DNA of 64,000 bases from Geosiphon pyriformis uo1 (Eukaryota > Fungi > Glomeromycota), in NCBI GenBank assembly GCA_016748015.1, contig JAAOMT010000235.1, positions 1 to 64,000 of the forward strand, written 5' to 3'. The notes below the pieces were generated by a model. The model searched no databases. It was not told the origin of the DNA and was given only the letters and a program-made list of their open reading frames with translations. This document shows positions 23,513-64,000 of the stretch, one piece after another. The number at the start of each line of letters is the position of its first letter. Positions within the stretch are counted from its first letter, which is position 1. Position numbers and translations under genes: made by a program.

Positions 23513-24465
23513 TGTTACCAGAGGTTTTTGGTCTCTTTTCTTGAGTGTTGTAACTGTCTGTTGGTTGCAAATTCACGTTTTTTAGAAGTAGTTGAACCTC
23601 CAATAACTGAATTTATCTTCAAATTATCTTCTATAATTTGAACTGCTGGGCTTATAAGTGAAATGGCCAATTCCTTGCCAGTTGCTTTATGTAGTTATAT
23701 TGTAGTAAATGTCAACTCTTTCCCAGGAATTGCTCGTCTGGAAGCTCACTAAAAATGTGTAGTTATTTTGCTGTAAAAGTTAATTCTTCTACAGGAATCT
23801 TGTCTGTAGGCTACTCTAATGATTATAGTAAGAAAAATACAAGAAAATAAAAGAAATGTAAAAGAAATAGAATTTTGTCAAGAGAAATGTTTTCTATCCA
23901 GGACTGGAGTCACTAACAGTTTACTGAAATTGGTAGCTAATCAATTTCAAAACATTAGTTGGGTTTTAAAAATTTTCCAAGTGCAATAATTAAAGAATTT
24001 GGTTTTTCGAATTATTTGATATTTATTTCTTTTTGTGTGTGTAGGAATGGTTCTAAGTGATAAATCTAAAGTAAGATACATTTTCCAGAAGAGAAAAGCT
24101 CTTCTTTTATACAACTTGTTGTAGTACTAGTTTATGAACTTGCACTTTTTTTCTCTTTGCCCAAATTCTGGCAAACTAAAAATACATTTTGATGAACTAC
24201 AAGTTATTTCACTGAACTATTGATTAATTTGGGTGAACTATTCATAATTTCGGCGAATTTTTGAATGTTACAAAGTTCAGGGTATTGTGTAATTTGATCA
24301 TCTTACTTTCTGTTATACTAATTAGATTATTTTACTTGAATCGTGATATGTGATAATTGATTAAATAATAAATGATAATTTGAAATGATATTAATATACT
24401 AATGAATTATAGAAATTATAAGGGTAATTTCATGCTAATTAATAGCTAAAATTCTACTGGTAACA
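23513..24465 (-). repeat. 3' LTR of A
   Basis: Direct repeat of 39336-40305; preceded on the minus strand by PPT GAGGAGGAGATTA. Confidence 0.95.
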
Positions 24466-24830
24466 TAATCTCCTCCTCAAAACTGAGCTCTATCAAAGTC
24501 CAAGCACTATCTGTAATATTGAGATAGTGATCTAAAATGATTGAAGTAATCTGGTCTGAAAATTGTTAAAATTTCAGTTCTGTGAATTTGCCAATGTATT
24601 GGACTTTCATTGATTGCAGTATTGGATTTTGTAGAACATTTTCACAAGTATTAAACAAATCATAGAGTCTAAAAGCTGCTCTAAGTTTGTAGCAAGTGTT
24701 TGTTGGTCCAGCTGCTGTTTTGAATTCATTGTAAATTTGTTTTTGTATAACTTCAGGAGTGAGATTTGTTGCTTCAAGTTCCAGTTTTCGTTTATAAAGT
24801 GTTTTTCCAATTTGAAAGTATCTATAAATA
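24446..24830 (-). pseudogene. Element A accessory ORF3, C-terminal part (start hidden in the N gap)
   Basis: Hand translation IYRYFQIGKTL...KLRAAFRLYDLFNTCENVLQNPILQSMKVQYIGKFTELKF*...IELSFEEEIMLPVEF*; one internal TAA; stop lies inside the LTR. Confidence 0.72.
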
Positions 24831-24987: not shown

Positions 24988-25029
24988 TTTCGGGGAATAT
25001 CTTCAGGATTAATTAAAGGGGAATGTGTA

Positions 25030-27913: not shown

Positions 27914-28340
27914 TCATCCAGTTGAACCAAAACCTTGAGTTTTTCTTTCACTTTTTCCCAATTGTTCTCTGTTGTTTACTGATTGTAAACCCGAAATGTT
28001 GATTAAGGGTAAGTAAATTGCTTGAGCAATTTTTTCAGCATGTTCAATTTTGAATGGTTTGTCTGTCTCATTCTGTAACATGATGGTAATGTCTCCAGTG
28101 TATCCTGCATTTATAACTTCTCCTCTAATATTGATTCCTTTACTTGCCAATGATGATCTGGAGGCAATTTGAACCATTGCTCTTGGTAGAATTTCAAGAG
28201 CAATTTTGAGATTGATTTTTGTCAAGGACTTTGGTTGGAGAACCAAAGTATCTTTTCCTGGGTATCTTAGGTCATATCCAGCATCAATTTCGTGTGCTTT
28301 TTCTGGTCTGATTCCTTGGCCATGATTGTCAAAATATTTA
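27914..28340 (-). pseudogene. dUTPase domain in pol of element A
   Basis: All five trimeric dUTPase motifs are recognisable: DAGYDL, SRSSLA, GEVINAGYTG, KIAQAI, RKTQGFGSTG. Confidence 0.92.
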
Positions 28341-28595
28341 AGTTGTAGAAGTAGTTGCTTTTCAAGAAGATAGATGGGAGTGGTTGGTAGTTTTTATACT
28401 TGTTCAAATACTCCAAATTTGATTTCATTTTTATCATTCTCATCTGGCAGAGGAATGCTAAGAGCATAACATTTTAAACACCATTGGTCATCACAAGGCA
28501 TAACACATTCTTCACACAATTGAATGTTCATTTGCTCTAATTGTTGAATTTGAGCTTCTTTGGTCGGATATGTGTGGCTTGCAATTTGGTGGTAG

Positions 28596-29213
28596 TGTTA
28601 TGGGTTGGAGTAACAAGCTAATGGATAGCAAAGGAGAACAGTATTGTATAGTGATAGAAATAAACAAAGAAGGAATTACAATAAGGGAGCGAATTGAATA
28701 AGTAAGAATTCAATGTACGTGATCAGTCTCATAAAAATCACAGTTGCTAATCTTTTCTTAAATCTGAAGGTAGAAGAATAGTCCATGATTGTCAACAAGA
28801 TAACACTGCTGCTATTATTCTATGCCTCAATTCGGCGATTCTTAGAATCAATAACAGATATCATTGTATTTTTCAATCGTTTCTTTATTCAATGAATTAC
28901 AAGAGCAAGCCAATTGCTTCTCAGGCTAATTCTAACAAATACAAATCAAGAAGGGGAAAAGATAAGGTATGTGAATGCCAACAAGTAGATACTTAAAGGT
29001 AAGGAAAGGAGAATAAGCGATTATGAGAGGAAGTAATTGATATTGTTTATTTCGTTACTTTGATCATATCTTTCTACAGCTAAGGGAATCATCGCTTATA
29101 TAGTTATCTAAAGTGGTCAATGATCACTATCTAAAAATAGAGTGGCTAATTATATGACATCAGTGGTTAATACATGTGATAATTAATAAAAACTATGTGT
29201 TTCAACTGTAACA
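28596..29213 (-). repeat. 3' LTR of B
   Basis: Direct repeat of 35547-36224; PPT GGAGAGAATAA adjacent at 29214-29224. Confidence 0.95.
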
Positions 29214-29839
29214 TTATTCTCTCCAAAGAGATTGAGCTCCAGCAAAATCAAACTATTTATGAGATAGTCTATGTGAAGGGTTTTGTCTAACTCAAAACTA
29301 ACTAGTTTGTTGAAGTCTTTTGTGGATAGAGTATATAGTACTTGAGGCAAAATAAGCTTTGTATCCAAGAGACCAAATCTTTGTATAAGAGTTCTGGCTC
29401 TTCTTGCAATAGTCAAAACTCTTGGGACATCCAATTATATAATGCCCAAAATTTCCACTTGTATCTTTGAAGTTGTTTTCTTTATGAGCTTCATGTCTTC
29501 TATGATTTCACCAAGACAACCATAGAGTTCTAGTTGTCTTCCATATGACAAGTTTTTGTCTATGAGCAAAATTTTTTGTATTGTTTTTCCAATTGTGCTG
29601 GAAGGTGAAAGTATCGCTGCTGTTATGCTTTCCAGCAGATATTTATCCATTTTGCCACCAATTCTTTCTCTTCTGGTAGTTGTTTTCTTTGGTCTAATAA
29701 CAGTATAAGTTCCACTGTTGTCTGTTATAGTGGTTTGTTTTCCAATAGTCAGAGTAGCATTTGGATAGTTCTTGATCCAGTATTCATGGAGAGTATAGAA
29801 AGCGTTTTGAATGTTTTGATCCAAGAAATAATTGTTCAT
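29183..29839 (-). pseudogene. Element B accessory ORF3 (one in-frame stop at 29435)
   Basis: ORFs 29435-29935 and 29183-29434 are in the same frame and match the open copy at 62627-63379. Confidence 0.85.
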
Positions 29840-35540: not shown

Positions 35541-35546
35541 CTTTTA

Positions 35547-36224: not shown

Positions 36225-36228
36225 GTAG

Positions 36229-39315: not shown

Positions 39316-39335
39316 NNNNNNNNNNNNNNNNNNNN

Positions 39336-39640
39336 GGAGGTTTTTGGTCTCTTTTCTTGAGTGTTGTAACTGTCTGTTGGTTGCAAATTCACGTTTTCTA
39401 GAAGTAGTTGAACCTCCAATAACTGAATTTATCTTCAAATTATCTTCTATAATTTGAACTGCTGGGCTTATAAGTGGAATGGCCAATTCTGTGCCAGTTG
39501 CTTCATGTAGTTATGTTGTAGTAAATGTCAACTTTTTCCCAGGAATTGCTCATCTGGAAGCTTACTAAAAATGTGTAGTTACTTTGCTGTGAAAGTCAAC
39601 TCTTCTACAGAAATCTCGTCTGTAGGCTACCCTAATGATT

Positions 39641-39671
<31 letters not shown>

Positions 39672-40786: not shown

Positions 40787-41607
40787 TATTACAGATGATT
40801 ATTTGGAATCTCAAATCAAATAACAAACCTATAACTTGGTGCTTAAAAACTGCTACAATTAATATTATCTGAAGGTTTTGGTTGAGTTCTTTGTATAATG
40901 AACAAAGATTTTTATGTTGTTTTATTCATAGCTTTTTAGAATTACAATTCCATCAAATTTTTTTCTTTAGCATGATGGCTGGTTTATTCTGGCAGTTATG
41001 CTCTTCTGGTAAGCTATTCTTAATTTCCAAGTTTTCTACTCTTGTTTCACAGGTCTTTTACCAGACTATTTTTAACATCAATAACTCAGTGCTTAATCTC
41101 TTTAATCAGTTAGTAACAAATAAAAATAAAAATAAAATAAAATAAAATAAAGAAAAGAAAATAAGCCAAGACAAGTAAGTTAGTATCTCATTAATAGCTG
41201 TAATCAAGAGTTATTGTTCCAGTATGATTAAGTATTAGATACTATCAACATATAGTGTTAATAGTAAAAAGAGTAATTTGGATAGAAAATAATTATTTTA
41301 TTAATATTGATGATTCTATTCTGTGAGATATTTGTAGTAATTCTGTTTTTTTGTTTTTAACACTCTTGTTATATATATATAATTTGGGTTCTACAAAATT
41401 GCTCATATTTCCAAACAATGTGCTATAATTTCTTGAGCAATTTGCCCTAATTTTCTAATATTGCTCTACATTGTTGAACAATATGCTATAATTCCTAACA
41501 ATGCTCCATATTGCTAAGCAATATGCTCATATGTTAACTACTATTCTTTTATTGGTCTATCTGTTTTTTTTACTTATTTTCTTGTATGTTTTTTTCAATA
41601 AGTAACA
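40787..41607 (-). repeat. 3' LTR of C
   Basis: Diverged direct repeat of 59944-60781. Confidence 0.9.
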
Positions 41608-42253
41608 TTATCTTCTTCTTTTAATATTAAGCTTTATTGAAATTTTTATTTTGAATTAGTTCTATGACTTCTTTTTCTAGTATCATTTGTTTAACTCTGG
41701 TTCTTATATCTTTGATTTATGAGTTGTTTATTTTTTTTTATTGGTTAATGGTCATTGTCTCTATGTTAGAGTGTAGCAATATTTCTGGGTAATTTTAAAA
41801 TATTATGTGTATTTAATAGATTGTTTTAATATGTAGTGTCAGATTTGGTTTTTTTTTAATAATATCTTCAATATTCTGTATTATCTTTTGATTGAATATT
41901 CTTTTAGATTTATTGAGATATAACTTTTGAATATCCAATTTTTGTTCCAACTAATAGTAACAGTATAATATTGATAGTTGTTTTATTCAATTTTCTTTTG
42001 AGGATTCTTCTGTTGGAGCTATAATAAATATTTTCTTAAAAGTGTTTTTTACTTTTTCTATTATTTTATCCAATCAGTATTTTGTTTGGTTCTGTGGTCA
42101 CTAATATGGTGTATTTTTTGCTTTTTTATCTTGTTTGGTGTTCTAATAGCAGATTGTTTGGTGGTTGATAACAATTTCTATGTTTAATTGTTGTTAATTT
42201 AAGATCTGAAATAATTGTTAAGTTAAAGTGTGAATATGATCCAGTATTTCCAT
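41595..42253 (-). pseudogene. Element C accessory ORF3 (decayed)
   Basis: MEILDHIHTLT*QLFQIL...IEIVIN and LYCYY*LEQKL...LTLHIKTIY*IHIIF*NYPEILLHSNIETMTINQ align by eye to ORF3 of D. Confidence 0.65.
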
Positions 42254-45200: not shown

Positions 45201-45544
45201 TTGTGGAAAATCTGAAATAGTGCTTGGTGGTTGGTTTTTGACTTCAGTGCTTAAATATCTGATGATAGTTCTTTTTGATATTTTAAGAATCTCTTCAGTT
45301 GTATTGTAAATAGAAATTTTAATGTGTTTAGAGTTTTTGGCTGGTATGTAAAAATTGATAATTCCAATTTTTCTTGATTTACAAATGATAGCTTCTATTT
45401 TGAAAATTTGAGCTTGATTCTTTACTTTTCTTTTTATGATTAATATGTACTGGTTATATGGTGGGATGGAAATTGATTAATGAGTAAAGATAATTTTTTT
45501 TTTGTTAACAACTTCTTTTTCGGCCATATTGACTGATACATCTA

Positions 45545-45960
45545 TTCTACTTGTGGATCTAAATCCACTTATTTCTCTTACTGTTATCCCTAAATTTTTT
45601 TTTTCCTATTGATACTAACTAAGCTATTTTAACCAGAGATAAAAATATCATCTGTGCTATTTTTTTATTTGGTTTAATGATATATTTTTTTTTCAAGTCA
45701 TTTTGTAACATTGCAATAATATTTTCCACATATTTTGCATCAATTATTTTTTCTCTAATGTTGATACCTTTTTTTGCTAAACTATTTCTAGATGCTTGTT
45801 GAATTATTATCATTGCTAAAATTTCTAGTGCTACTTTTAGATCAATACATATGCACAAATATGGTTCCAATTTGATGGCATTTTTCCCTAGATATCTAAG
45901 ATTAAATCCAGCATCAGTATCATGTACATGTTTCAGCATAATGTTTTTATCATTATTGCT
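45545..45960 (-). pseudogene. dUTPase domain in pol of element C
   Basis: DAGFNL, ASRNSLA, IIDAKYVE, KIAQMI, REISGFRSTS. Confidence 0.85.
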
Positions 45961-46898
45961 GAACTATTTCAGTTCTTGTTTTTTGTAAGATCAGAAAGTG
46001 TAATGTATTGTTCTGGATTTAAATTGGAGTCTGAATTGTTGTTAACAATATTGTTATTTTGGACTAAACTGAAACTATTGTTTTCATTGTCATTGTTAGA
46101 GTTTAAATCAGGATTGAATTTTGATTTTAATATGCAGCTGTTGATTGGTTCTTCTTCTTTAAGAATTAAATAAATCATTCATAATGGTGAATTGTAAATA
46201 AAGTCACACTTATTACAATACTGAAAGTCATAGAGAATCAGACAGTATTGATAAAGTCAAGTATTTAGCCATTTTAGTTGTTGTTCTTGTTTTTTTTAGT
46301 CAAGTTCTGGTAATGTTCATGGAATTGCTTAGGATTGTCCTTGACATTATTCAAGACATTAAAAGTTAGGATGTATTCTGGTTTAAAGAGTATTAGAGAA
46401 TTATTCTTGATTTTCAGTATTTCACTGAGTAAAGCACCTTCTGCTTTTGCACTTACCATTCTCCAGATTTTGTGTCTGTTGTATAAGTAACTTTTCAATT
46501 TTTTTAGTGCTCATTTCCAGGCATTGTTGATGGACATTTTTTTTTGTACCCAGTTATTGATTAGAATCATGTATTGACATGATTCATCACATGTTTTTTC
46601 TCATTCAAGAATATAATTCCACATTTTTTTGTCAGACAAAATGGTTCTACATGCGAAACAAAGTTTGTTGTTTCATTTTTTTTGTCTTTTTGGTCTTCCA
46701 AATTGCTTGAAAACACATGGGCAACAGTAATATTTAGTGGCTATTGGCCATTCCTTATTGTCACCATAACACGTGCCTATTGTTGACAATTTTTTGCCAT
46801 AATTGACACAAATTAGCCTGGGTTGACAATAGTTTGGCTGTGGTTGAGTGATAGTGGTATATGGTATATAAGTAGAGGTTGTTGCTTGGGGTTTTTTT

Positions 46899-46903
<5 letters not shown>

Positions 46904-46950
<47 letters not shown>
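46904..46950. repeat. 47-nt T homopolymer inside pol of C
   Basis: Directly visible in the sequence. Confidence 0.95.
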
Positions 46951-49093
46951 CCTCTCATGTAGGCACTGGTAGTAAACTATTGTAGTTATTGTCAGCCTAC
47001 AAGACTTGATAGGCTTTCCAAGTAGGTCTCTCTTTCTCTTTTTCTAATTTAATTAGTGGGATTTGAATAGTATTGGTTAGTTTGAAATGATTACACATGA
47101 CTGGTACTTTAGTATGCTAACTATTTTGGCTGATTTGCAGTTCTTGAATGGTCCAGTTAAGCACAGCATTTGTTTTGAACAACCAGTTATTACTAACTAG
47201 AGCTTGGTATTAAGTGGCTTCTATGATAAGAACTTTGATCAGTATACTGATGCTGTTAACTTTGATTAGAAAGTCATTGATTTCGCCAATTGTGGTCTCA
47301 TCAGCAGTGATAATTTTGGCACTGGCAGTGCAATCAACTTAGTAACCTAATTGGTCTATAAATTGCTTGGTAATAATGCTGTCTGCCAAACTACTATCTA
47401 GTATCAGTTTGATGAACTGATCATTAACCTTGGCATTAGTGTATATCACAGTAATGAGTTTTGTGTTTAAAGCAGCTTTACTAAATAATGGGGTTATTAA
47501 GGATTTTTCAAGTTCAAAGAGAAAAATTGTGGCTAATAATTTGTTGTTAGTGACAGTTGCTGAAGATATGTTGTTGGTAAATGGCTTTTAGTTGGTTTCC
47601 TAATAATTAGATTGGGTGTTTTCTGAAATAACCAAAAGACTTAAATAGTATTGGGCAGTTGGGTTTTGGGTGAGTTTCCAAATTTTGCTGTTGCAATTTA
47701 AATTTTTGGGCTATTAAACTGGAAATTGGTTGGTACATTATTATCACCAATTACCAATTTTGACAGATCTGCATAGTTCTTAGTTTTTGGTTTCTGTTTT
47801 GAGGTAAGTTCTATAACAGTATTAAAATTGGTTGGGATTGATAAATTAGCTGAGTTTAGAGTGGTTAATAAATTACTTGAGCTGAATGTTGATAAATTAG
47901 TGCTTAATAAATTGGCTACATTATTTGAAAAAAATGAGGCTGATATTAGTATTGTTTATTTAATAGATTATTGATATAGTTCAGAGTTTGAAATTTACAA
48001 TCATGGTTTTGAAATTGAGTTTCTGATTATTGGTTATTTAACCTTAACTGGCAATCAAATTTTAGATGCTCTTGTTTATTATAATAGTAACAAATACATG
48101 TTTTTTGCAGCTATTTTTGATTTGAGAAAGCTGGCCATGATTAATGCTGGAGTTAATTGGAATTTCCTGGGTTTCCATAATATTGTAATGGCTGATAAAT
48201 AATCTGATTGCTATTATTATTATCTAAGTACTTTTCTAGTTTCTGATTAATCAAATCACTAAATTGTTTCAACTTAGAATCCAATTCAAATAATCTATTT
48301 ATTACTAAATTCATAGCTTGAACTTGTCTGGCTTTTAGCTTAGCTAATTCAAAATCTTTGACATAAGTGACTGTGTTTTGTAGTATATCTGGGCACATTG
48401 GCCATACTTATTGTAAGATAGTGCTGCATAAATCATAAATGAATTGATTCAAAATTTGGGGTGTTGTAAAATAATTCATATCAATTGCTTGAATCTGGTG
48501 CAGATTCCTATAAAAACATCTCAGATAAGTGATAACTGCTTCAATTTCTTCTTGCTTAATAGTAGTGAAATGGACAAACAATCAATTGATGCTGTTGTGA
48601 TTGTTAAAATACTATAGAAAAGCATTTTTGAACACCTTAAATATATCAGATTTATTTATGAGACTTTAATACCATGAGTTAGTTGTATTTTGGAGAAAGT
48701 AGAAAATGGCTTATAGCACTCTTGTTTTATCCCAACTGTTGGTTACAATTACTTTTTCCATATTGTTGAGTCAGGCTTAAGTGTTTTCTTCTTCACCAGT
48801 AAATTTCTTGAATTTAATGATAGGTACATATGCCATTGGTGCTAGCTACTGTAGTTGCTGTAGATTTTGTTGATGCTAAAAAACAGGAATTGGGGCTTCT
48901 GGTAAATAGATCCATATAACTAGAAATAGGTTTTTCTAACTAATAAAAACAGAGTTTGGATTGTTCAGGTTTTGCAGAGTTGAAACAATCAGGGTTTGTA
49001 TTTCTGGGTTTTCTAAGATTGAGTTTTGATTATTAATTTTCTGATCACTATTTTTCTCTTCTTTAAAGTTGGTTATTTCTCAAAAGCTAGTAG

Positions 49094-50025
49094 TATTACA
49101 GTAAATTATTTGGGATCTCAAAGCAAATAACAAACTTGTAACTTGGTGCTCAATTAATATAATGATGTTGGTTTTTGAAGATTTTTGTGATCTAAAGATT
49201 TTGGTTGAGTTTTTTGTATAATAGACAGAGAATTAATAGTTGTTTCAGTAGCCTTTTAAAATCACAATTCCATTAATTTTTTTCTTAGCTTGGTGGCCAG
49301 CAATCCTCTGGTAAGCAATTTGTAATTCTTATGCATTCTACCCACTTGCAGGAGTCTTTTACCAGACAATTCTTGATGTTAATAACTCAGTGCTTAATTC
49401 TTAATAAGTTTAGTAAACCACCAACAAGATCTAAAATAAAATACAGAAAATTAAACCAAGGCAATGCAAGTTAGTATCTCATCAATAGTCATGATTAAGA
49501 GCTATTGTTCTCATGTGTTTTAAGTATCAATTACTATCAACATTTAGAGTTGATAGTGAGCAATTAAATTTGAGATTCTGAATAAGAAATATTTATTGAT
49601 ATTTGGAATAATATGGTTTCTAACTAGAAAACAGTAACTAATGAATTTTTGTCTGGGGATTCTTCTTCTTTTTGTTTCTAATACTATTGCTATATATACA
49701 TATTTTCTAGTTTTACAGGATTGTCTTGGATCATCTATTCTTGCTAGCTATCACTTTGTTTTCTTATGTTATACCTAATTATTCTATGTTATAACACATT
49801 ATTTGATGTTATTACACATTATTCTGTGTTATCCTGTATTATAACACATTATTCTATATTATAATGCATTACTCTATGTTATCTTGTATTATAACACATT
49901 ATCTTATATTAAACACATTATCCAACATTATTGCACATTATTCTGTGTCTTTTTATGTTTTGTCATATTTTTTTAGGTTATGTTTTTCCTTCTTTCTTTG
50001 ATCAGCTTTCCTTCTTTAAGTAACA
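49094..50025 (-). repeat. 3' LTR of D
   Basis: Direct repeat of 58395-59256 with a longer internal 10-11-bp tandem array. Confidence 0.9.
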
Positions 50026-50808
50026 TTATCTTCTCCTTTTTAATATTGAGCTTGTGTGAAATTGGTTATGTTTGTTAATAGAACTTTGTTTATGTAATGT
50101 TCAATGATTATGTTAACTATGGTTTTGTAGATCTTCAAACTGTTAATTGGTTATTTATCCTATGTTGTTAACTGTTATCTTTTTTAAAGATCCATCCTAT
50201 AGTATATTTGGACAATATCAAAAAGTGATATATAATTGACATGCTGTTTTGTAGTGTAGTGTTAAGCTGTTCTTTCCTACAAATTCTTTCACTTGTTATA
50301 TTGTTTCTTTGTTGAAAGTTTTTTGGTTGTAGTTTCTGTATGGGTTTTTTAAGTTTAGTTGTTTCCCAATTTTATAAAACCAATATGTTAGAAGGAGTCT
50401 TTTTTTCCACTCCTGAGTATTGTCTGGTGTCCACTCCCTTGTTTCAGGGAGTTTGGTTTTATAAGCTAAAGATTCTTTAATTTTTTCTAGCTCAAGAGTC
50501 AAGTATGTTGTATATAATTGTTTTTGTCTTCTATTTAATTTTCTCATTTTTTCTTCTTCCTTCCCTCCTTTTTTTTCATGTCCCATCCAAAAAGTATATT
50601 TAATTCCTTTTTGTAAAATTTTTTTCCCAAGTGGAGTATAGGAATGAGAACAATTAGTTCTAGTTGAACTTTTGTCTATCCCTCTTTTTCTTTTATTTCT
50701 ATATCTTATCTCTTTTTTATCGATTATAATCTCTATTTGAGATGCAGATTTTTGAATTTTATCAAATAATTGTTTAAATAATTTTAAAATTTTGTCTAAA
50801 AGATCCAT
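50016..50808 (-). pseudogene. Element D accessory ORF3
   Basis: ORF 50296-50880 (MDLLDKILKLFKQLF...YWFYKIGKQL) continues through a stop and a frameshift as LTLHYKTACQLYITF*YCPNIL*DGSLKKITVNNIG*IT. Confidence 0.75.
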
Positions 50809-53800
50809 GTTTGAAATTTTTATTGTTTTTTTCTTTGTGATCTTGAGGCTTATATGTGCATAATATCTAAATTTCGGCATGTATATAACTACATTTTGAT
50901 GATTATGATTGGTTCCATATCTTGTGGTATATCTTTTGGTCTGATTAATGGAATTTGTGCTTCTAGTTGTGATACCAATGATGTCAATCCTTGTGTTGTT
51001 TGATAAATTTTTAAATGATTTCCATGTGCTGTTTTTTTCAGAATTCTGTTTTTTAATTATAACTTGTAAGATTTATTTTCCAAAATTTTGTATATGTAAA
51101 ATAGTCTGTTCTATTTTAGATCAAACTTTTCATTTTACTGTTTTTCCACTTTGGTACAATGTAATAGTACTTTGTCTCTAATTCTGAATTCAACTGGTTT
51201 TTCTGGTAGTTGGTTATTATGTCTTTTTTTTGTTTTTTTGTGACTTTTAAATGTTATCAGCTGCTCTTTGCCATTTGTTTTCTAGTGTTTTTATTAAGTC
51301 ATATGTTTTTTTTAACAATGTTTTTTGGAAGTTGTTTTCTGTAATTGGTTCTATTAGATATGTATTGATTTTTATTTCAACTGGTAATATTACTGTTCTA
51401 CTATATACTAATTTAAATAGTGTTGCTTGTGTAGTATTTTGTTTTATTGTTTGATAAGCAAATAATACTAATGGTATGAATAAATCCCATTCATCTTGGT
51501 TTTTTTGGCTGATCTTGGCTATTACTTTGCACAATGTTTTATTGAATCTTTTGACTAATCTATTGGTTTGTAAGTAAAATAGTAATAATAATGGTCTCTT
51601 TATTCCGAATTTTTGACTCAGTTCTGTTAATGTTTTATTTACAAAGTAAGTTCCTTGGTCAGATAATAATTCTTTTAAACATCTATGTCAACAAATTAAA
51701 TCTTGATGGATGAATTTGGCAATGAATTCTGCATCCACTCTTTGAATTACTTTTGCTTCTGACCATTTAATGAAATAATTCATGGCTACTGCAATATATC
51801 TGTTCCCTTTGTTAGTTATTGTTAATGGTCTGACTAAGTCAATACCAATATGATTGAATGATTGTTTTACTTTAATTGGTTTTAATGGCTTGCTGAATTT
51901 TGTTCTTTCTCTGACAAGCATCACAATTTAGGACATATTAGATAATATCTGGATACATAGATGGCCAATAGTATCTATTTTTGGTTTTTTCTATGATTGC
52001 TTCTTTATGAAAATGTTCTGCTGTTGGATTTGAGTGCATATTGAATAGTATTGTTTTTTTTTCTGATTCTGTGATTACTCTGAGTGATTGTTCTGAATCT
52101 TTTCTGTTTTTTTGATATAGTATGTTTTGGTGGTTAATAAAATATTTTGATTTTTGTTTTATGTTGTTTTGTTCCTTTTGAAATAATTTCTCCTTAAACA
52201 ATTGAGTATTTATATAATGTTGGAGTTGTTGATATTTTTGTGTGTTTATTTTTTGTTATATTTTGAGTTAAAATGTTTTTAGATTTGTTTTATTTATGAT
52301 AAACCATCAGCATTTCTATTTTCTTTTTTCTTTTTATAATGTACTGTATACTTGAATAGTAATAGTTCTATTTTCTATCTTACATGGCAATTGTCTCTGA
52401 ATTTTTGTTTCTGAATTGAAGTCAATCCTTTGTAATCAGTGTATACATCAAACTTTTGGTTTAAGTATTCCTTCCATTTGCTGACTGCCCAATAGATAGC
52501 TAAGTGTTCCAATACTGGTGTTCTATAATTCTTCTTAGCTGGACTCAAACTGCGACTAGTGTATGCTACTGGGTATTCTCTTTTATCTGGTCCTCTCTAA
52601 GATAGTATGGCTCCTAGTGCTTGACCTGATACATCAGTAGTGATAATGAATGACTTGCTGTAATCTGGATAGATTAGTACTAGTGCTTGGATAAGCTTTT
52701 TCTGCAATATATTAAAAGCTTCTTGCTGGGTTTCAGTCCACTCATATTTGACATTCTTGGTTTGAAGCTGGTGAAGGAGTTAAGCCAATTTGGAGGAGTT
52801 TTTAATGAAGTGACAGTAATAACTTGTGAATCTCAAGAATGCTTATAGTTCAGTTAAGTTGGTTGGTACAGAAAATTTCTTTACTATCTCAATCTTATCT
52901 GGATCTGTTTTGATGTTGTCTTTGCTTACAACATGTCCCAAGAATTTTAGTTTTGTTTTTCCAAAAAAGCACTTATTTGCATTTAATTTTAATCCTGCTT
53001 GTTTGAATCTTTCAAACACTTGCTGTAAGTAATGAAGATGATCATCAAATGTTTTTGAAAATACGTTTGTGTTATCTAGATACACTATGATAAATTTTTA
53101 TAGTAGTCTAGTGTAAACAATTTCTATTAGCCATTGGAATATGGCTGGAGCATTTATTAATCTAAATGGCATTACTTTAAATTCAAAATTTTCTTTTCTT
53201 GTTGTGAATACAGTCTTTTCTTTGTTGGCTAAATTTATGGCTACTTGCCAGTAACCACTATCTAAATTCAATGTTGAAAACCATTTTTTTCACCAAAAGT
53301 ATCAAATAATTTTTGAATCTGTGGGGTTGGATAACTGTCTCCACGAGTAACTCTGTTGAGTTTTCTATAATTTATACAAAAGCAAATTTTCTTGTTCTTC
53401 TTACAGACTAATACCACTGGTAATGACCATGGACTCATAAATAGTTAAATTAACTCGTTGTCTAGCATCTAATTGATTTCCTGTTGGATGATTTCATGGC
53501 TGGCTGGTGGTACTCTGTATGCTCTTTGTTTAATTAGCATGGCATTTCTAGTCTTGATCTAATGCTGAATGATATCAGTTCTGCCAAATTTATTTTCATT
53601 CACAAAGATATTAGTGAAATTGTTGAGTAGCATCTTGATTTGCATATGTTGCAGTGGGTCTAAGTTTTCCAAGTTTATTTGTTTCAATTGTTCTGGTTGG
53701 AGCAAATAGCATTTATTTTGTCTGTATATAATTTGTGATATAATGTCTACATATCCACATAGTTGTGGAAAGTCTGAAATGTGGTTTGGTGATTGGTCCT

Positions 53801-54099
53801 TAACTTCAGTGGTTAAATATCCAATGATGATTCTTTTTGGTATTTTGACAACATCTCTAGTCGTGTTGTAGATAAGAATTTTGATATAATAGTAGTTTTT
53901 GACTAGTATATAGAGATTAGTAAGTCCAATCTCTCTTGACTTACAAATAGTTGGCTCTGCTTCAAAAATCTAAGCTTGATCCTTCACTTTCTTTCTATCA
54001 TTAACATGTACTGGTCATATAGTGAAATAAAAATTGGTTGATTAATGGAGATAATTTCCCCCTTGTCAACAACTTCTTCTTCTGTCATATTAACTAGTA

Positions 54100-54535
54100 T
54101 GTCTATTCTACCTGTGAATCTAAATTCATTTATTTTTCTTGCTGTAATCCTTAATTTTTTCCTATTTCTCACTGAAACTAACTGAGCTACTTTAACCAAA
54201 GGCAGGAATATTGCCTGTGCTATTTTTTTATTTGGTTCTATAATGTAAGTTTTTTCTGAGTCATTTTGTAGCATTGTAATAATATTTCCTACATATCCTG
54301 TATTAATTATTCCTCCTCATATATTGATTCTCTTTTTTGCTAAACTACTCCTAGATGCTAGTTGAATCATAATAATTGCTGAAATTTCCAGTGCTATTTT
54401 GAAATCAATACAAGTACACAAATATGGTTCTAATTTGATGGCTTCTTTTTTTGAGTATCTTAAATTAAACTCTACATTGGTGTTATATGCATGTTTTGGC
54501 ATAATACCTTCATCATTATTACTGAACCACTTAAG
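54100..54535 (-). pseudogene. dUTPase domain in pol of element D
   Basis: NVEFNL, LASRSSLA, GGIINTGYVG, KIAQAI, RKINEFRFTG. Confidence 0.85.
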
Positions 54536-57500
54536 TTCCTGCTTCTTAGAAAAATCAGAGAGCACAATGTCTTATTCAAGATTTGAATCAGAGTTTGAAT
54601 CATTGTTATTTCAGTTGCTATATTGAATGAAGCTGGAACTATTATTATTGTTGTCATCATTGTTAGAGTTAAAATTGGAATTGAAAATTGATTCCAATTT
54701 CAATACACAGTTACTGATTGGTTCTTTTTCTTTGGAGATGGTGTAAATTATGTATAGTGGTGGATTGTAAATGAAGTCACACTCATTACAATATTGAACA
54801 TCACAGGAAATTAAGCAGTATTGACAAAGTTGGGTGTTCAGCTGTTCTAGACACTGTTCTTGTTTTTTTCAGGTGGGTGTTAGGTTCTGGCAATGTTCAT
54901 GAAAATGCTTTGAATCTTCTTTGACATTGTCGAAGACATTAAAAGTAAGAATATATTCAGGTTCTGGAAAAGATAGAAGATTGTTTTTAATTTCTAGTAA
55001 TTCATTGAGTGTAGCATCTTCAGCTTTGGCATTCGTTATTCTTCAGATTTTGTGCTCATTATGTGGGTAATTTTCCAAACATCTAAGTACTCATTTTTAA
55101 GCATTGTTAATTGGAGTTCTTATTCTTACCCAGTTGTTTATAAAAATTGTGTATTGGCATGTTTTGTCACATGTTTCTCCTTGTTCAAGAATGTCGTTCC
55201 ACATTCTTTCATCTGGTAGAGTGGTTTCACATGTAAAACAAGATTTGTTGTCCCATTTTTTCTGTCTTTTTGGTCGACTAAAGCATTCAAAAATGCATGG
55301 ATGGCAATAGAACTTTGTTGTAGTTTGCTATTTCTTATCATTATTACAGCATGTATTCATTGTGGACAATTTTTTGCCATAATCAACACATATAAGCTTT
55401 GGTTGATGATAATTAGTTTGATGAGTAATAATGTACAGTGTATAAGTGGAAATAGTGGTTGTTGTTGACTCTTCCTCTCTTTCTTTCTCTTTTCTTTCCT
55501 TTTCCTTTTTCTTTTCAAGTTAAAATTGGTGGTAGCTTATTGTAATCATGATCAGTCCACAAGACTTAGTAGGCTTCTTAGGTAGATTTCTTTTTTTTTT
55601 CCTCTAATTCGATTAGTGGTTTTTTATTGGTAGTGGTCTTAAAATGTCCACACATTACTGGTACTCATATGTGTTGCCCATTTTAACTGAGTTGTAGTTC
55701 TTGGGTGTTCTAGTCAAGTATGGTGTTAATTTTGAACAGCCAGTCATTACTAACTAGTGCTTAGTACTGAGTAGTTTCCATGATAAGAACTTTGATTGGC
55801 ACAATGATGTTACTAACTTCAAAGAAAAAGTTGTCAATTTTGCCTATTAGAGTCTTTGTTGCCCTATTGGTGGTGATTATTTGTGCATTGGCAGCATGAT
55901 CAACTCAACAACCTAAGTGATCCATGAGTTGTCATGTAATAATGCTGTTAGCTGATCTACTATCTAGGATCAGTTTAATGGGCTGCCCATCAACTTTAGC
56001 ATCTGTATACATTGCAGTAATAGGTTTTGATTCTAAGGCAGCTCTACTGAATAGTAGCGTTTCAACTGGTTTCTCAAGTTTAAAAAAAAATATGGTGGTA
56101 AGTGATTCATCTTCAGTAATGGCTGCTGACAGTATATTATTGGTAAGTGGCTGCTTTTGTTTGGCTTTTAAGTTGTTGGATATGGCATTTTCTGGGATAA
56201 TTAGAAGACTTAAATAGTTTTGGAAATTCAGAGGTTGAATATATTCTGTTTTTAAACTCTGCTGTCATGATCCTGAGGATTGAGTTAAGGAACTGGGAAT
56301 CAGTTGATGCATAACCATCACTGATTTTTAGTTTTGTTGAGTATGAGTGACCCTCAGTTTTTGGGTTCCTGTGATTAATTGAACTGAGTTGGATGGTGGT
56401 GTTTGAATTTGTGGGAGCTGATAGATTACTTGGGGCTATGACTGATAAATAGATTGTGGCTGTAGTTGATAAACTATGAGTACTGGAGGCTAATACATTG
56501 GTGGTTGATAGATTGGCTGTTGTGTCATGAATAAGTAATTTGATTGATATGGTTCTGGGTTTGATTGATAATTTGGAATTTGAAATCTGTGATTGGGGTT
56601 TTGGTATTGATTTCCCAATTATAAAATATTGCTATAGATTTAACAGTTAGCTCTAATGTGACCTTGTTTGTTACAATTGTAGCAGACACATGCTTCTGTT
56701 TGTCCTAATTGATTAGTTGATGCTAATGGATGTGCCTGATTTTGAAAATAATTTGAGTTTCCTAAATTATTATATCATTGTGGAGATTAATAGATGGCTT
56801 AATTGTTAACTAAATATTCTTCTAATTTCTGATTGATTAAATTACTGAACTGCTTCAATTTAGAATCCAGGTCAGATAATTTATTCATTACTAGATTTAC
56901 AGCTTGAGTGTAGTTGGCTTCAAGTTTGGTGGCTTCAAAATCTCTGGCATAGATGACTGCTGCTTGGAAATCTGCTGGATGTAATGGATGTACATGTTAA
57001 AGAATGCTACTATACAGACTCCTGATAAATTGATTTAAAATTTGTGATACTGTGAAATAATCAGCTTGTATTGTCTGTATTTGGTGCAAATTTCTGTAGA
57101 AGTATTCTAAGTAAGTAGTAACTGCTTCAGTTTTTTCTTGCTTAATGGTGGTAAAGATATTGGCCAATTGGTTGATGCTATTATTATTACTAAAGTATTG
57201 CAGAAACTCAAGCTTAAATGTGTTGAAGTTTTGGAGTTTGTTGACTAAGCTTTGATATCATAAATTGGCAGTATCCTGAAGAAAGTATGAAATGGCTTGA
57301 AGGGCTCTGGCATTGTTTCATCTATTGGCTGTGATGGCTTTTTCTATATTATTCAGCCACACTTACATGTCATCCTCTTCACCAGTAAATTTTTCAATTT
57401 TGGCAATTGGTATGTATGCTATTTGTTGTGGCAGTTGTTAAAGTGATTGTTGTGATTATGGTTGAAATAGTATTTACGGCTGTTGAATTGTTTTAGCAAT

Positions 57501-58394
57501 TGGTTCAATTAGTGGCTGATTGATCATGATTACTGGAGGTAAGTATTGCTGATTAATAATGTTAGAATTTGGATTGTTCTGATTTTCTGGAGTTTGAATA
57601 TTTGGGGTTTCAACTTTTGGGTTTTCTATAATTGGGTTTTGGTAATTGAATACTTGATTGTCATCTTTCTTTTCTTCTGATTCCATTACTTCCCAAGGAC
57701 TTGTGATTCCAAAATCTGGTGAAGATAGTGGTGATCAGAATTCTAATGGTGTCAGTGATTGTGATTTAAATTCTTCAAAATATTTGCTATAGGTTCTTAA
57801 TAAGTTGGCTTTTGATTGTTTCCTTTAAAATGATATTTGTGCTAATAGTGTTTTTGTGTTTGATGTGAATGTACCTGCTGATGAAATGTTGATGGCACTT
57901 CTGGGTGTATAATAGTATGATAGATAGGTTGGTGATTCAACTCTTGTTTTCTTCCAAATAAGTGGTTGTATTTTCTGAAGGGTTACTTCTGGTGTTTGTA
58001 GTTTTCCTTTACCTTTGGTTGTGTAAGTGATAGAATATTTTTGTTGAGTGTAATGTTTAATTTCTCTATTTATTTCAGTAAGGATTGCTGTAAAATTATG
58101 ATTTGCTGGTAGACTGGTGTTTTGAATTAGTTTGTTGTAGAAATTTTCTCTTACTGAGTCAGTTTTTACTGGTACTCCTAACAAATATAAAATTCTTTCA
58201 TTGATGTAGAAATTGAAGGCAAATTCTGCTAATAGGTAATTGTTGGTTAATCCCAAGTGTTGACAATAATGCTAAAATAAGGATTTAGCAAATCCTAAAT
58301 AGTTTGTCCCTATTTTTTTTGATTCTGTCACTTTTGAATAATTGTTTGTTGATGCTAGTTCTTTGTAAGATTATACTTCACAAGGAACACCAAA

Positions 58395-59256
58395 TGTTAC
58401 AGTAAATTATTTGGGATCTTAAAACAAATAACAAACTTATAACTTGGTGCTCAATTAATATAATGATATTGGTTTCTAAAGGTTTTCATGATCTGAAAGT
58501 TTTGGTTGAGTCCTTTGTATAATGAGCAGATAATTAATAGTTGTTTTAATAGCCTCTTGGAATTGCAATTTCATTAATTTTTTTCTCAGCTTGGTGGCCA
58601 GCAATCTTCTGGTAAGCAATCTGTAATTCTTATGCATTTTACCCACTCACAGGGGTTTTTTATCAGACAATTCTTGATGTCAATTACTTAATGCTTAATT
58701 CTTAATAAGTTTAATAAACCATTAACAAAATCTAAAATAAAATACAAAAAATTAAGCCAAGACAATACAAGTTAGTATTCTGTCAATAGTTATAATCAAG
58801 AGCTATTGTTTCTATGTGTTTTAAATATCAATTACTATCAACATTTAGAGTTAATAGCAAGCAATTGGATTTGAAATTCTGAATAAGAATATTTATTAAT
58901 ATTTGGAATGATATGATTTCTAACTAGAAAATAGTAATTAATAAATTTTTGTCTGAGAATTCTCCTTCTTTCTGCTTCTAATGTTACTACTATATATACA
59001 TATTTTCTAGTTTTACAAGATTGTTTTGGATTGTCTGTTTTTACTAGCTATTATTTTGTTTTCTTATGTTATACCTAATTATCTTATGTTATAATATGTT
59101 ATTTAACGTTATTATATGTTATTCTGTGTTATTCTACATTATAATACATTATCCAATATTATTGCACATTATTCTGTGTCCCTTCACGTTTTATCACATT
59201 TTTCTAGGTCATATTTTTCTTTCTTTCTTTGATCAGCTTTCCTTTTTTAAGTAACA
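58395..59256 (-). repeat. 5' LTR of D
   Basis: TGTTACAG...GTAACA termini; followed by the PBS on the minus strand. Confidence 0.9.
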
Positions 59257-59943
59257 ATGGCTTCAAAATCTAGTTGTAATAGTAGTAATCAAACTTCTGA
59301 TGGTGTTAGAGATTGTAATTTAAATCCCTCAAAATAATTGTCATATGTTCTTAATAACTCTGCTTTCTTTTGTTTACTTTGAAACAGGATTCTGCTTAGT
59401 AGTGTTGTCACATTTGTTGTGAATATGCCTATTATATTAATAGTACTTTTGGGTATGTGGTAATATGATGAATTTACAAGTAAATTAAATTTCTGTTTTT
59501 TCCAAATAGGTAATTGTATTTGCTTTGGAGTTTCTGCTGGTGTTTGTAATCTTCTTTTTTCTTTGTCAATAAAGATAATAGAAAATTTTTGTTTAGTGTA
59601 CTTTTCAATTTCTCTATTTATTTCTGTAATTATTGGCACAAATAGATGATTCTGTAGTAGTGTAGTGCTTTAAAGTAATTTACTGAAGAAATTGTTAAAA
59701 ACAGATTCTGAATCTCCTTGACCTTTCAAGTAGTATACAATTTATTTGTTGATATAACAATTGAAAGTTGATTTTGTTGGCCAACTGTTATCTGTTAATC
59801 TCAAATAATTTTTATAATGCTGGAATAAGGATTTTGTAAATCCCAAGTGGTTTGTTCTTATTTCTTCTGATTCTGCTACTGTTTTGAATAGTTGTTGTTA
59901 GTGCTGGTTTTCTGTTGGATTATACCTCATAAGAAGCACTAAA

Positions 59944-60781
59944 TATTACAGATGATTATTTGGGGTTTTAAATTAAATAACAAACTTGTAACTTGGTACT
60001 TAAAAACTGCTACAATTGATATTATCTTAAGGTTTTTGTAATCTAAAGATTTTGGTTGAATTCTTTATAATAGACAAAAATTCTTATATTGTTTTATTTG
60101 TAGCTTCTCAGAATCACAATTTTGTCAAATTTTTTTCTTTAATATAATAGTCAGATTATTTTGGTAGTTATGCCTTTCTGGTAAGCTATCTTTAATTTTC
60201 AAGTTCTCTACTTTTGTTTCATGAATTTTTTACCAGACTATCTTTGACATCAATAACTCAGTGCTTAATCTCTTTAATCAGTTAATAACAAACAAAAAAT
60301 AAAAAAAAAGTAAAATAAAATAAAGAAAAAAAAATAAACTAAGACAAATAAGTTAGTATTCTGTTAATAGCCATAATTAAGAGCTATTGTTTCAGTGTAA
60401 TTAAGTATTAAATACTATCAACATATAGTGTTAATAGTGAAGAAAGTGATTTGGATAGAAAATAGTTATTTTATTAATATTAATAATTCTATTCTGCAAG
60501 ATCTTTGTAGTGATTCTGTTTTTTTTGTTTCTAATGCTCTTGCTATATATACATAATTTGGATTTTATGAGATTGCTTACATTCTCAAGCAATGTGCTAT
60601 GATTTCTTGAACAATGTGCCCTAATTTTCTAATATTGCTCCACATTGCTGAGCAATGTGTTATAATTCCTAACAATGCTTCACATTGCTAAAAAATGTGC
60701 TTATATGTTAACTATTATTCTTCTATTGGTCTATCTGTTTTTCTTAGTTATTTTCTTATATGTTTTTTTCTATAAATAACA
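59944..60781 (-). repeat. 5' LTR of C
   Basis: Direct repeat of 40787-41607; followed by a decayed PBS. Confidence 0.9.
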
Positions 60782-61134
60782 GTAGACAGAGAATTAAGGA
60801 CAACATATTTCCTTGTTTATCTCTTCATGATAATATCAACAACAGATTTAACCTTATTAAGTACCAGAATCAAGTTATTATTCACTATTAGATGGTTAAG
60901 CACTATTTTCCAAAATGGCTGCTCCAAAACACTCTTGATTATATGTCTTTTGTCAGAACAAAAGTTTTCCATGTATTTGTTTATTGTTTTTTTGATAAAA
61001 ACATCTTTGACAACCTTAAACTTGTAATACTTGGACTTGCAGTACATTTTTTTGACTTTTGACAAATAATGCATAATTCTTTCTCTATTTTTACTATTAT
61101 CAAACATGATGCACACTTTGAAAGCCTTTTTATC
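60782..61134 (-). mobile_element. LINE L-1, upstream segment (linker before RT)
   Basis: ORF 60817-61116 (KTINKYMENFCSDKRHIIKSVLEQPF...) joins ...YWSNQY at 40786 across the TSD of C. Confidence 0.78.
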
Positions 61135-62002
61135 TTTTTTTTTTGTTAATGTGTAGCCACACTAGTTTTTTATTAGTTTAGTCATACTTAAAAAGCATGG
61201 CTTTTTCATAAAGCCAACTCATCCAATAATTTAAATTACAAGATGTGGCTAACTACTATGTGGTTATGTCTAACTACATACTAGTATAACCAAAAAACCT
61301 AAGGGGTATCACACTATTACTTAAAGTAATTCTATTATCCAAAACATCAGTCAATATTTTATTACAACTTTTGTATTCATTACTCTTTCTAATATTGAAA
61401 TTGCCACTACCATTAATATTATTCTTTGGTGTTTTGCACACACTAATTACTTGTAATAAGCTTTTCTTAACTCTGTTATTAATGCCTACTGATTTTTCTC
61501 ATTCAGTTTGTAACTTGTAACATTCTTTTCACAATCTATTTCTTGCTTGAGTTACTGCCTATTTACACACCTTAATTTAAACATTATTGTTAGCTCTATG
61601 ATCAATGTCAGAAAAAACATTGATTCTTCTGAATTGCTCATTAATTAATCCTTTGCATAATAGATCTATGTTGGGTGTTGACCAGATGTACTCATTAGAC
61701 AGAAAAATCTGCTTGCCAGGGTCCAAAATTTTACATTTCCCTTTCACAGTCTTTGATAAGCACTGCATCCACTTATTTCTCACATCATTTATCAGCATCT
61801 TGCCCATTTGAGTATTCAGAAAGTATTTCCAAAAGTGTTGGTTGGTTTCTACTTCTGTGTGGCATGTTTTGCACAGATTGTTCAAATACACCAAAGAATA
61901 TCTGTTGTATAGCACCTCTGCTGTTGGCAGCATATTATGGAATGATTTTATGATAAATGTATGCATTGTTGAAAAACCAGCCAAGGTGAGACCTGATAAC
62001 AT
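61135..62002 (-). mobile_element. LINE L-2 (different family), 3' end, inserted in L-1 and interrupted by E
   Basis: FIIKSFHNMLPTAEVL...LCKTCHTEVETNQHFWKY (zf-RVT-like C-terminus), 3' UTR, poly(T) at 61135-61144 at the junction with L-1. Confidence 0.75.
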
Positions 62003-64000
62003 TGTTACAGATTGGAGTAACAAGCTAATGGATAGCAAGAGAGAACAGAATTGTAGGGTGATGGAAATAATCAAAGAAGATTCAACTTTAATGAGCGAAT
62101 TAAATAAGTATGGATTCAATGTGTGAGATCAGTCTCATAAAATATCTCAGTCACTATTCTTTTCAAAGGTAACTGGGGAATCTGAAGATAGAGAGATAGT
62201 CCATACTGTCAACAATTAATTACTGCTGGTATTAATTCTATGCCTTCACGTCAGTGCTCTTAGAATTCAATATTAGGTATCAACTTGTGCTCTTCAGTCA
62301 CATTTATACAAATAGTCTTCAAATACTACAATTATTCAAACAGAAAAAGGCCAACAAGTAATCTTTTATTCTAAGATGTTTGGATACTTGAAGGTAGGAA
62401 AAGAGAAATTAGCAATAAGAGAGTGATTGAGATGAAAGTTGTTATTTTTATTTATTTGATTCTTGTCTAAAAGATGATTTTCTACAGCTAAGAGACTCAT
62501 CACTTATATAGCTATTGAAAGTGGTCAATGACCAGGTTAATGGTCAGATCATTGATCAGGTCAATGATCACTATCTAAAAATAGAGTGGCTAATTATATG
62601 TCATCAGTGGCTAATACATGTGATAACTAATAAAAATTATGAGTTTCAATCATAACATCATCCTCTCCAAAGAGATTAAGCTCCAGCGAAATCAAGCTAT
62701 TTATAGGGTATTCTAATTGAAGGGTTTTGTCTAACTCAAACCTAACTAGTTTGTTGAAGTTTTTTGTGGATAGAGTGTATAGTACTTGAGGTAAAATAAG
62801 CTTTGTATCCAAGAGACCAAATCTTTGTATAAGAGTTTTGGCTCTTTTTGCAATGGTCAAAACTCTTAGGACATCTAAACATATAATGCCCAAAATTTCT
62901 ACTTGTATCTCTAAAGTTGTTTTCTTTATAAGCTTTATTTCTTCTATAATTTCACCAAAACAACTATAGAGTTCTAGTTGCCTTCCATATGACAAGTTTT
63001 TGTCTATGGGCAAGATTTTTTTAATCATTTTTCCAATTGTCATGGAAGGTGTAAGTATTGTTGCTGTTATGCTTTCCAACAAATACTTATCCATTTTGCT
63101 ACCAATTCTTTCTCTTCTGATAGTGGTTTTCTTTGGTCTAATAACAGTATGAGTTCCATTGTTATCAGTTATGGTGGTTTGTTTTCCAATGGTCAGAGTA
63201 GCATTTGGATAATTTTTGATCCAGTACTCATAGAGAGTGTAAAAAGCATTTTGAATGTTTTGATCTAGAAAATAATTGTTCATGTTGATTGAAGATACCT
63301 CTGTTTTGGGAATGGTGCATTTATTTATATCTGATTTTTGTTGATCATTTGGGTCAGTATTACCACAACAGGTAACCAATCAGGTTATTTGTGATATTTC
63401 TTGAGTCATGTGCCATGAATAAGGCGATCATTGAAGATTGTTCTATATTGATCTTGTAAGATATAAGAACCATTGTTTAAAACTTTGTTAACTATAAAGA
63501 GTCCTTTCCACCAGCTAGAGAATTTATTACCATAGACATTGTCTCTGTCTGAATGGTATTCTAAAACTAAGTCATCAACACTTAAGGAAAGTGTTTTATA
63601 TGTTTTCTTTTTCTTAAGCTTCTCTTGGAATTGTTTTATTTTTTCAAAAACAATTATCTGTGCTTCTACTAATAAGTCAAGAATAGTACCAAGTCTTCTT
63701 TGCAAAATGTCTTTGTAATTGCCTATTGTTATTTCTTCAAAGAGTATTGTCTCAATGTTAATTTCTATTGGTAAGGTTGCCATTTGTCCATAAAGTAAAT
63801 AAAAAGGTTTATAACTTGTTATGTTATAATTCACAGTTCTATAGGCAAACAAAGCTAAAGGCAGTACTTTGTCCTATAAGTTTGTTTCTTTGCTGGTTTT
63901 GGCTAGGGTTTCACATAGTGTTCTATTAAAATGTTCTACTAGGCCATTTGTTTGGGAGAGATAAGGAAAAGAAAGTTTGTGACATATTCCCATTTTTCTG
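62003..64000 (-). mobile_element. Ty3/Gypsy LTR retrotransposon E (relative of B): 3' LTR 62003-62657, ORF3, integrase end; runs out of the window
   Basis: TGTTACAGATTGGAGTAACAAGC start identical to the B 5' LTR; PPT at 62658-62668; integrase C-terminus closely similar to that of B. Confidence 0.92.
62627..63283 (-). CDS. Open accessory ORF3 of element E (~218 aa from ATG 63283), function unknown
   Basis: Uninterrupted frame downstream of integrase, ending 31 nt inside the LTR. Confidence 0.8.
   Translation of the reverse strand: MNNYFLDQNIQNAFYTLYEYWIKNYPNATLTIGKQTTITDNNGTHTVIRPKKTTIRRERIGSKMDKYLLESITATILTPSMTIGKMIKKILPIDKNLSYGRQLELYSCFGEIIEEIKLIKKTTLEIQVEILGIICLDVLRVLTIAKRAKTLIQRFGLLDTKLILPQVLYTLSTKNFNKLVRFELDKTLQLEYPINSLISLELNLFGEDDVMIETHNFY

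Follow-up and report, generated by a model that had tools for sequence, protein, structure and literature searches.

Accessory genes in LTR elements

LTR retrotransposons are thought to depend on host factors for their transcription, and a transactivator encoded by the element itself, together with an internal promoter, characterizes the complex retroviruses. For fungal Gypsy elements, extra ORFs have been published before: in its available text, the paper of Novikova et al. (2010, PMC2864245) describes an "add. ORF" of unknown function in such elements, and also a dUTPase between protease (PR) and reverse transcriptase (RT) in PosPlaTy3-5. The accessible sections on rotifer elements (PMC5408684) list ORF3 products that are TM/env-like proteins, GDSL esterases, DEDDy nucleases or coiled-coil proteins, and these ORFs are typically spliced. 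Sense-oriented extra ORFs of plant elements have been reviewed, according to the accessible part of PMC7264820. In foamy viruses, Tas (Bel1), a protein of ~250 amino acids, is expressed from a promoter located internally, between env and the 3' LTR; it binds both the LTR and this internal promoter (PMC4929722, available sections).

The fungus Geosiphon pyriformis has an expanded complement of LTR elements (PMC11952901, accessible part). We analyzed a stretch of 64,000 nucleotides from its contig JAAOMT010000235.1 (hereafter the window), in which we distinguish five LTR elements, A to E. Each of them carries a same-strand ORF, here called ORF3, between integrase and the 3' LTR (5/5, all on the minus strand), as had been proposed in a first-pass annotation. 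The available parts of PMC3248453, PMC11952901, PMC13465315 and 10.1101/2021.03.30.436303 make no mention of this ORF3, and a full-text literature search, thin on subscription papers, found no description of it.

The closest described elements, those of PMC2864245, resemble the Geosiphon elements in having an extra ORF in a fungal Gypsy context and a dUTPase as in A, C and D. Their add. ORFs, compared by description alone, could be the same proteins or different ones; in the accessible text, the species of the genome table include no Glomeromycotina, and selection, fold or promoter data are not given for the add. ORFs. Rotifer elements, as far as the available part of PMC5408684 describes them, share with ours the slot, the orientation, conservation throughout a family and, in some lineages, a dUTPase. 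Unlike the ORF3s described there, the Geosiphon ORF3 is predicted to be soluble, lacks a Pfam match and is preceded by its own candidate promoter.

LTR elements of the window

Elements A to E belong to the Ty3/Gypsy group (Metaviridae), as indicated by TG...CA LTR pairs, a polypurine tract (PPT), gag and the gene order PR-RT-RH-IN, and Pfam domains occur in the order Retrotrans_gag, protease, RVT_1, RT_RNaseH, Integrase_H2C2 and rve (Table 1). Element E is represented within the window by its integrase tail, ORF3 and 3' LTR only. The pol regions of A, C and D include a dUTPase, and none was found in B by Pfam or by tblastn over the window. The translated Gag of B shows a zinc-knuckle pattern.

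Table 1. Positions of elements, ORF3 copies and associated features in the window
Feature	Position	Strand	Remarks
Element A	23521-40305	minus	LTRs 23521-24465 and 39337-40305; hosts nested B (self-comparison)
ORF3 of A, 3' part	24446..24829	minus	one internal stop; 5' part lost in N gap 24831-24987
Post-RNase H stop region of A	26417-26380	minus	
dUTPase in pol of A	27914..28393	minus	PF00692, E 7e-22
Element B	LTRs 28596-29213 and 35547-36224	minus	nested in A
ORF3 of B	29183..29839	minus	218 codons, one internal stop
Post-RNase H stop region of B	31292-31200	minus	
Array in 5' LTR of B	36076-36131	minus	4.7 copies of 12-nt unit
Element C	40787-60781	minus	LTRs 40787-41607 and 59944-60781; hosts nested D
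ORF3 of C	41621..42253	minus	heavily decayed, many stops; ends before PPT
Post-RNase H stop region of C	43751-43680	minus	
dUTPase of C	45574-45975	minus	between protease and RT (tblastn over window)
Element D	LTRs 49096-50025 and 58397-59256	minus	nested in C
ORF3 of D	50040..50808	minus	heavily decayed; frameshift near 50130-50160; ends before PPT
Post-RNase H stop region of D	52314-52240	minus	
dUTPase of D	54110-54538	minus	between protease and RT (tblastn over window)
3' LTR of E (TG...CA)	62003..62657	minus	first 31 nt overlapped by ORF3
U3 array of E	62525..62570	minus	12-nt units, just upstream of LTR TATA box
PPT of E	62658..62668	minus	encodes part of ORF3 tail
ORF3 of E	62627..63283	minus	open, 218 aa and stop; B/E family
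Candidate TATA-like box of E	63324..63329	minus	46 nt upstream of ORF3 ATG; overlaps integrase stop
Integrase C-terminal part of E	63325..64000	minus	decayed, runs off window edge; stop 41 nt before ORF3 ATG
Further U3 tandem array	24213-24257		
Further U3 tandem array	41433-41527		
Further U3 tandem array	49789-49920		
Further U3 tandem array	60629-60705		

RNase H is followed by a stop codon in four of four elements (A, B, C and D), and a fresh ATG stands ahead of integrase in B and C; A has no ATG within 150 nt. The stop together with the new ATG makes integrase look like a separate ORF, so that the elements appear to be polycistronic. Among the integrase tails, those of A, B and a metagenomic relative described below (contig L001) gave no chromodomain match in Pfam; they match SH3_Tf2-1 or nothing before an early stop. 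By the C-termini of these integrases, the elements are not chromoviruses.

The two LTRs of each of A to D are 86-96% identical, and C/T or G/A changes make up 89-98% of the differences and lie mostly within CpA and CpT. This excess indicates that the copies are decaying by cytosine mutation; a process akin to RIP, or one driven by non-CpG methylation, is suggested for this member of the Glomeromycotina.

Distribution and conservation of ORF3

The ORF3 of E was first described as open, which is correct for all of its 218 codons, and the ORF3s of B and E were said to have stayed close in sequence as the middle of their LTRs diverged. Our alignments agree, with 87-92 identical residues per 100 columns in ORF3 versus 47-72 in the middle of the LTRs, the latter partly reflecting gaps. 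C>T and G>A changes have degraded most genomic copies of ORF3.

Searches with the B/E family recovered 130 relatives at E<=1e-3 among 523 candidates. G. pyriformis is the source of all 120 B/E relatives among the matches listed (of 130), one of which is 100% identical to the E protein, and 20 of the best 60 are exactly 218 amino acids long. The A/C/D query found 199 relatives among 5977 candidates; A-type proteins, typically of 221-239 amino acids, account for 111 of the 118 clustered A/C/D gene calls. Where a gene call joins both, the integrase piece comes first in all 33 calls of the B/E family and in 11 of 12 of the A/C/D set. Well over 200 "hypothetical" Geosiphon gene calls (at least 120 from the B/E search and 119 from the A/C/D search) are explained as transposon accessory genes, even if the function of ORF3 differs from that proposed below. 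Many of these "hypothetical protein" calls (P0001-P0261) are spliced chimeras of integrase tail and ORF3, and the call at the E locus (P0002) is one such chimera.

A wider sequence search yielded 28 matches, five of them metagenomic proteins at 29-35% identity, and a profile search added at least two more. The metagenomic contig L001 is undecayed and presents, in order, an integrase tail, a stop, 47 nt, an ORF3 of 197 amino acids, a PPT and the start of an LTR; it is 53% identical to B in the integrase tail and 28% in ORF3. No relatives of ORF3 were found in viral contigs or prokaryote genomes, the ESM Atlas held no usable match, and sequence searches of Pfam, NCBIfam and PDB with ORF3 gave nothing near cut-off. 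Another contig, L002, was rejected as an ORF3 relative, being an unrelated phage contig with a 14-residue chance match.

Codon models give an omega of 0.32 for ORF3 of B versus E (p 3e-5; 0.44 for the integrase tail), 0.18 for C versus D (p 1e-4) and 0.19 for B, E and L001 together; the fits for A-C and A-D were saturated and were left out. The ratio is thus well below 1, rather than near 1, within both B/E and C/D. Third codon positions hold 39 of the 70 differences between the ORF3s of B and E (p 1e-4) and 10 of the 14 transversions (p 0.004). For E we took the 40 best-supported of the 197 variants seen in other genomic copies, and for A all 25; among these, seven of seven transversions inside ORF3 are at third positions (five for E, two for A). 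The changes by which each copy has itself decayed are spread over all codon positions. A single-difference transversion ratio of 1.37 for C versus D runs contrary to a reading of selection, but it is outweighed by the likelihood model because this pair is saturated and decayed.

The prevalence of copies decayed by C>T and G>A would be compatible with a neutral or chance open frame. However, such a frame should not show so low an omega or a confident predicted fold, nor should its start and length be conserved or intact relatives of 28-33% identity occupy the same position, and we regard this explanation as exceedingly improbable. ORF3 is almost certainly a real gene under selection.

Overlap of ORF3 with the LTR

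The ORF3 frame had been described as crossing the PPT and stopping inside the LTR in A, B and E, and as likely doing so in C and D, in the manner of 3' genes such as HIV nef, MMTV sag and foamy virus bel2. Such crossing is seen in A, B and E, where ORF3, stop included, overlaps the LTR by 20 nt (A) or 31 nt (B/E), and also in L001 (16 nt), but C and D stop before the PPT. The family frame of C has its stop at 41621-41623 with the LTR starting at 41607, and that of D, after the frameshift, has its stop at 50040-50042 with the LTR starting at 50025, which places these stops 13-14 nt short of the LTR. A GAQY/GAQF terminus at this pre-PPT site is found in four of the five C/D-family gene calls that reach the end. 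The register in which A reads through differs from that of B/E. All three full-length metagenomic ORF3 proteins end in a PPT-encoded tail, and the predicted structure has pLDDT under 50 in the C-terminal tail (residues 183-196).

In HIV nef, MMTV sag and foamy bel2, the U3 overlap amounts to hundreds of bases. The frames of A, B, E and L001 are like these genes in crossing the PPT, but they reach 16-31 nt into U3, and C and D have no overlap at all. The comparison fails because an overlap of 0-31 nt is short or absent, occurs in two registers and involves the low-confidence tail alone. Read-through into the LTR is incidental, and the tail is the PPT region read as protein.

An AGCT(C/T)A motif is located ~20 nt before the LTR, ahead of the PPT, in all five elements of the window (3' LTRs at 24465, 29213, 41607, 50025 and 62657). 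Because the reading frame across the motif varies between elements, a constraint at the DNA level is indicated, and it is possibly a cis signal for plus-strand priming.

One ORF3 family or two

The first-pass annotation treated the five ORF3s as one shared protein that defines a single clade. Profile comparison by HHalign establishes homology within A/C/D (C-D, E 7e-23; A-D, 1.8e-7; A-C, 1.6e-4; reversed controls, E 0.035-0.81), and the B/E family matches the metagenomic set at E 2e-28. Between B/E and A, C or D, by contrast, E-values are 0.17-0.55, and merged profiles give 0.28 and 0.16, all from shallow profiles with low power. Column shuffles reached the score of B/E versus A/C/D in 4, 6, 13 and 13 of 40 trials, and then in 29 and 42 of 60, so the link between the two sets does not rise above shuffles. 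The shared ORF3 therefore stands for A, C and D and not for their link to B/E, and a single family marking one clade finds no significant match in a comparison that has little power at the 42% integrase identity of A and B. Non-detection is, moreover, expected at this distance because ORF3 diverges much faster than integrase, as the comparison of L001 with B illustrates.

The same results could mean that two unrelated genes were captured separately into one slot, one in the B/E lineage, which has no dUTPase, and the other in the A/C/D lineage, which has one; this would be so whatever the function of either protein. Three profile comparisons without a significant match and the difference in dUTPase content make this quite conceivable, as does the variety of unrelated ORF3 types that, in the available text of PMC5408684, occupy the slot in rotifer elements. 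However, the size, position and TATA spacing of ORF3 are alike in both lineages, a forced global alignment is collinear from end to end at 15-16% identity and pairs the motifs picked out in the first-pass annotation, and the best local match (E 0.16) coincides with one of them. The fast divergence of ORF3 also leaves the missing profile match without much force against common descent. On balance, the B/E and A/C/D ORF3s are somewhat more likely than not to be homologous. ORF3 defines one or two new protein families, one of which has a confident model with no significant structural match.

Predicted ORF3 protein

The maximum hydropathy over 19 residues is 0.35-1.28 in eight of the nine ORF3 proteins tested, indicating no TM segment; the E copy reaches 1.93, likely because of private substitutions in its central helix. 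The proteins contain 0-3 cysteines, and the metagenomic ones, with pI 5.7-6.9, are not basic. An env-like or spread protein might be expected from the position of ORF3, which is that of env, but the lack of a TM segment in eight of nine proteins, the few cysteines and the failure to find an env match in Pfam or against viral structures make this very unlikely. ORF3 is accordingly not a typical env, as was first proposed, and Pfam, NCBIfam, PDB sequence and Foldseek searches were all negative for a confident match to a described env. The related view of ORF3 as an old, kept, non-env protein is sound within each of the two families, given the selection on it, its divergent intact relatives in the same position and the lack of TM or env matches.

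AlphaFold produced a model of pLDDT 37 from 26 near-identical copies, and one of pLDDT 81 (pTM 0.62) when divergent relatives were added. The model covers the B/E protein; the A/C/D protein is known from sequence alone, and many hypothetical proteins of other arbuscular mycorrhizal fungi may contain a helical motif like that of its C-terminal part. In the model, one helix and a region with a short beta-hairpin (residues 8-46) precede a helical domain (residues 58-184). Although the model is confident, it has no significant structural match: Foldseek returned no matches at E<=0.001 against PDB and BFVD, and VIA-align found none at Z>=5 among 48,161 chains, nor among 994 in a second pass. All VIA-align matches have Z of 4.9 or below, where Z 7-8 is, according to the tool, typical for unrelated models. 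Weak matches to helix-turn-helix (HTH) proteins over residues 75-190 include Spo0J (Z 3.5, rmsd 4.9, 91 residues aligned), SopB (3.4), KorB (3.0), a CENP-B type domain (3.0) and DeoR (2.8). The modelled arrangement of helices over ~90 residues thus resembles HTH domains of the ParB/Spo0J/KorB type (Z 3.0-3.5), but the scores do not exceed background, with 7-12% identity, and ORF3 has no Pfam HTH match. Proteins of other kinds head the list of structural matches, and viral nucleoproteins reach similar scores (tospovirus N, Z 3.2).

Candidate internal promoter and U3 arrays

The gap between the integrase stop and the ORF3 ATG is 41-80 nt, and out-of-frame ATGs are present within it in five of five junctions, which would hinder simple re-initiation. 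A TATA-like box is found upstream of the ORF3 ATG at -46 in B and E, -39/-41 in C, -46 in D and -52 in L001, and part of this box is contributed by the integrase stop codon in B/E and L001. Comparable boxes occur in 1-3% of 20-nt windows (9% in the short body of E), a background to be read with the fact that the pattern and distance window were set after seeing the sequences and that C and D are related. No such box is in the same range before the two integrase starts that were checked. The simplest reading of this junction anatomy is that ORF3 is transcribed from its own internal promoter, which we consider likely on the arrangement of these motifs.

Tandem arrays are ordinary in the U3 of LTRs, and may bind host factors. 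Every element of the window has such an array just upstream of its LTR TATA-like box, with periods of 12 in B/E, 20-21 in A, 40 in C and 10/20/50 in D. The array unit of C holds a perfect 19-nt palindrome (60641-60659), and the number of copies differs between the two LTRs of B.

Possible functions of ORF3

A regulatory or anti-silencing role had been suggested for ORF3; the regulatory one is also our best guess, from weak structure hints and promoter anatomy, and the anti-silencing one is speculative. We tentatively propose that ORF3 may be transcribed separately and encode a DNA-binding protein that regulates the LTR of the same element. Transcription from an internal TATA promoter, situated where the integrase gene ends, would produce a subgenomic mRNA ending at the poly(A) site of the 3' LTR. 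This mRNA would encode a soluble protein of ~200-240 residues, with a small alpha-beta-beta domain, a helical domain of loose HTH resemblance and a disordered tail; those of B/E and A/C/D may go back to a single, very old family or may have been acquired separately. The protein might then bind the family-specific arrays of 12-21 nt repeats just upstream of the LTR TATA box, and binding would raise or protect transcription of the element, in the manner of the Tas feedback loop of foamy viruses. The resemblance to Tas would lie in the way of working, that is, in a 3' accessory gene with a candidate internal promoter, and would be a functional likeness, not membership. The Geosiphon elements differ from foamy viruses in being env-less fungal Metaviridae, our searches brought up no link to Tas in sequence or structure, and binding and activation are proposed by analogy.

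ORF3 could instead work together with the stand-alone integrase and direct integration towards chromatin or other elements, as the chromodomain does in chromoviruses. This would suit integrase tails without a chromodomain match (A, B and L001), the nesting of B in A and of D in C, and the regular succession of integrase and ORF3 in joined gene calls. However, any repeat-rich region should show nesting, the structure searches matched no chromatin-reader fold and a partner of integrase would not need a separate promoter, so we judge this role to be distinctly unlikely. An RNA-binding or particle-associated protein, which would chaperone RNA, suppress small-RNA silencing or assist re-initiation of translation on the polycistronic RNA, is fairly unlikely. 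It would be consistent with helical viral nucleoproteins that score like the HTH proteins, with the polycistronic RNA implied by the stop after RNase H and with the accessible text of 10.1101/2021.03.30.436303, in which Gypsy elements are the main sources of small RNAs in a related fungus, but no RNA-binding family was matched and Gag of B already has a zinc-knuckle pattern.

If ORF3 is a DNA-binding regulator, a selected, soluble protein of this kind poses a concrete question, namely whether the protein of each family binds its own U3 array. In a more ambitious version, which we think rather unlikely, a fungal Ty3/Gypsy clade would have independently evolved the design of complex retroviruses, with a stand-alone integrase, an optional dUTPase, an internal promoter and an ancient HTH transactivator that binds and co-evolves with its own U3 arrays and shields the element from cytosine-targeted silencing.

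Other features of the window

Between C and E, two reverse-strand frames (61577-62128 and 60817-61161) resemble by eye a fragment of a non-LTR reverse transcriptase and a zinc-binding tail; frames within 60817-62128 gave no Pfam match. Positions 841-15557 are occupied by compact host genes, which encode a YEATS/3HBD protein, an RNB exoribonuclease, an exonuclease-RRM protein, a protein with RanBP zinc fingers and an M18 aminopeptidase.
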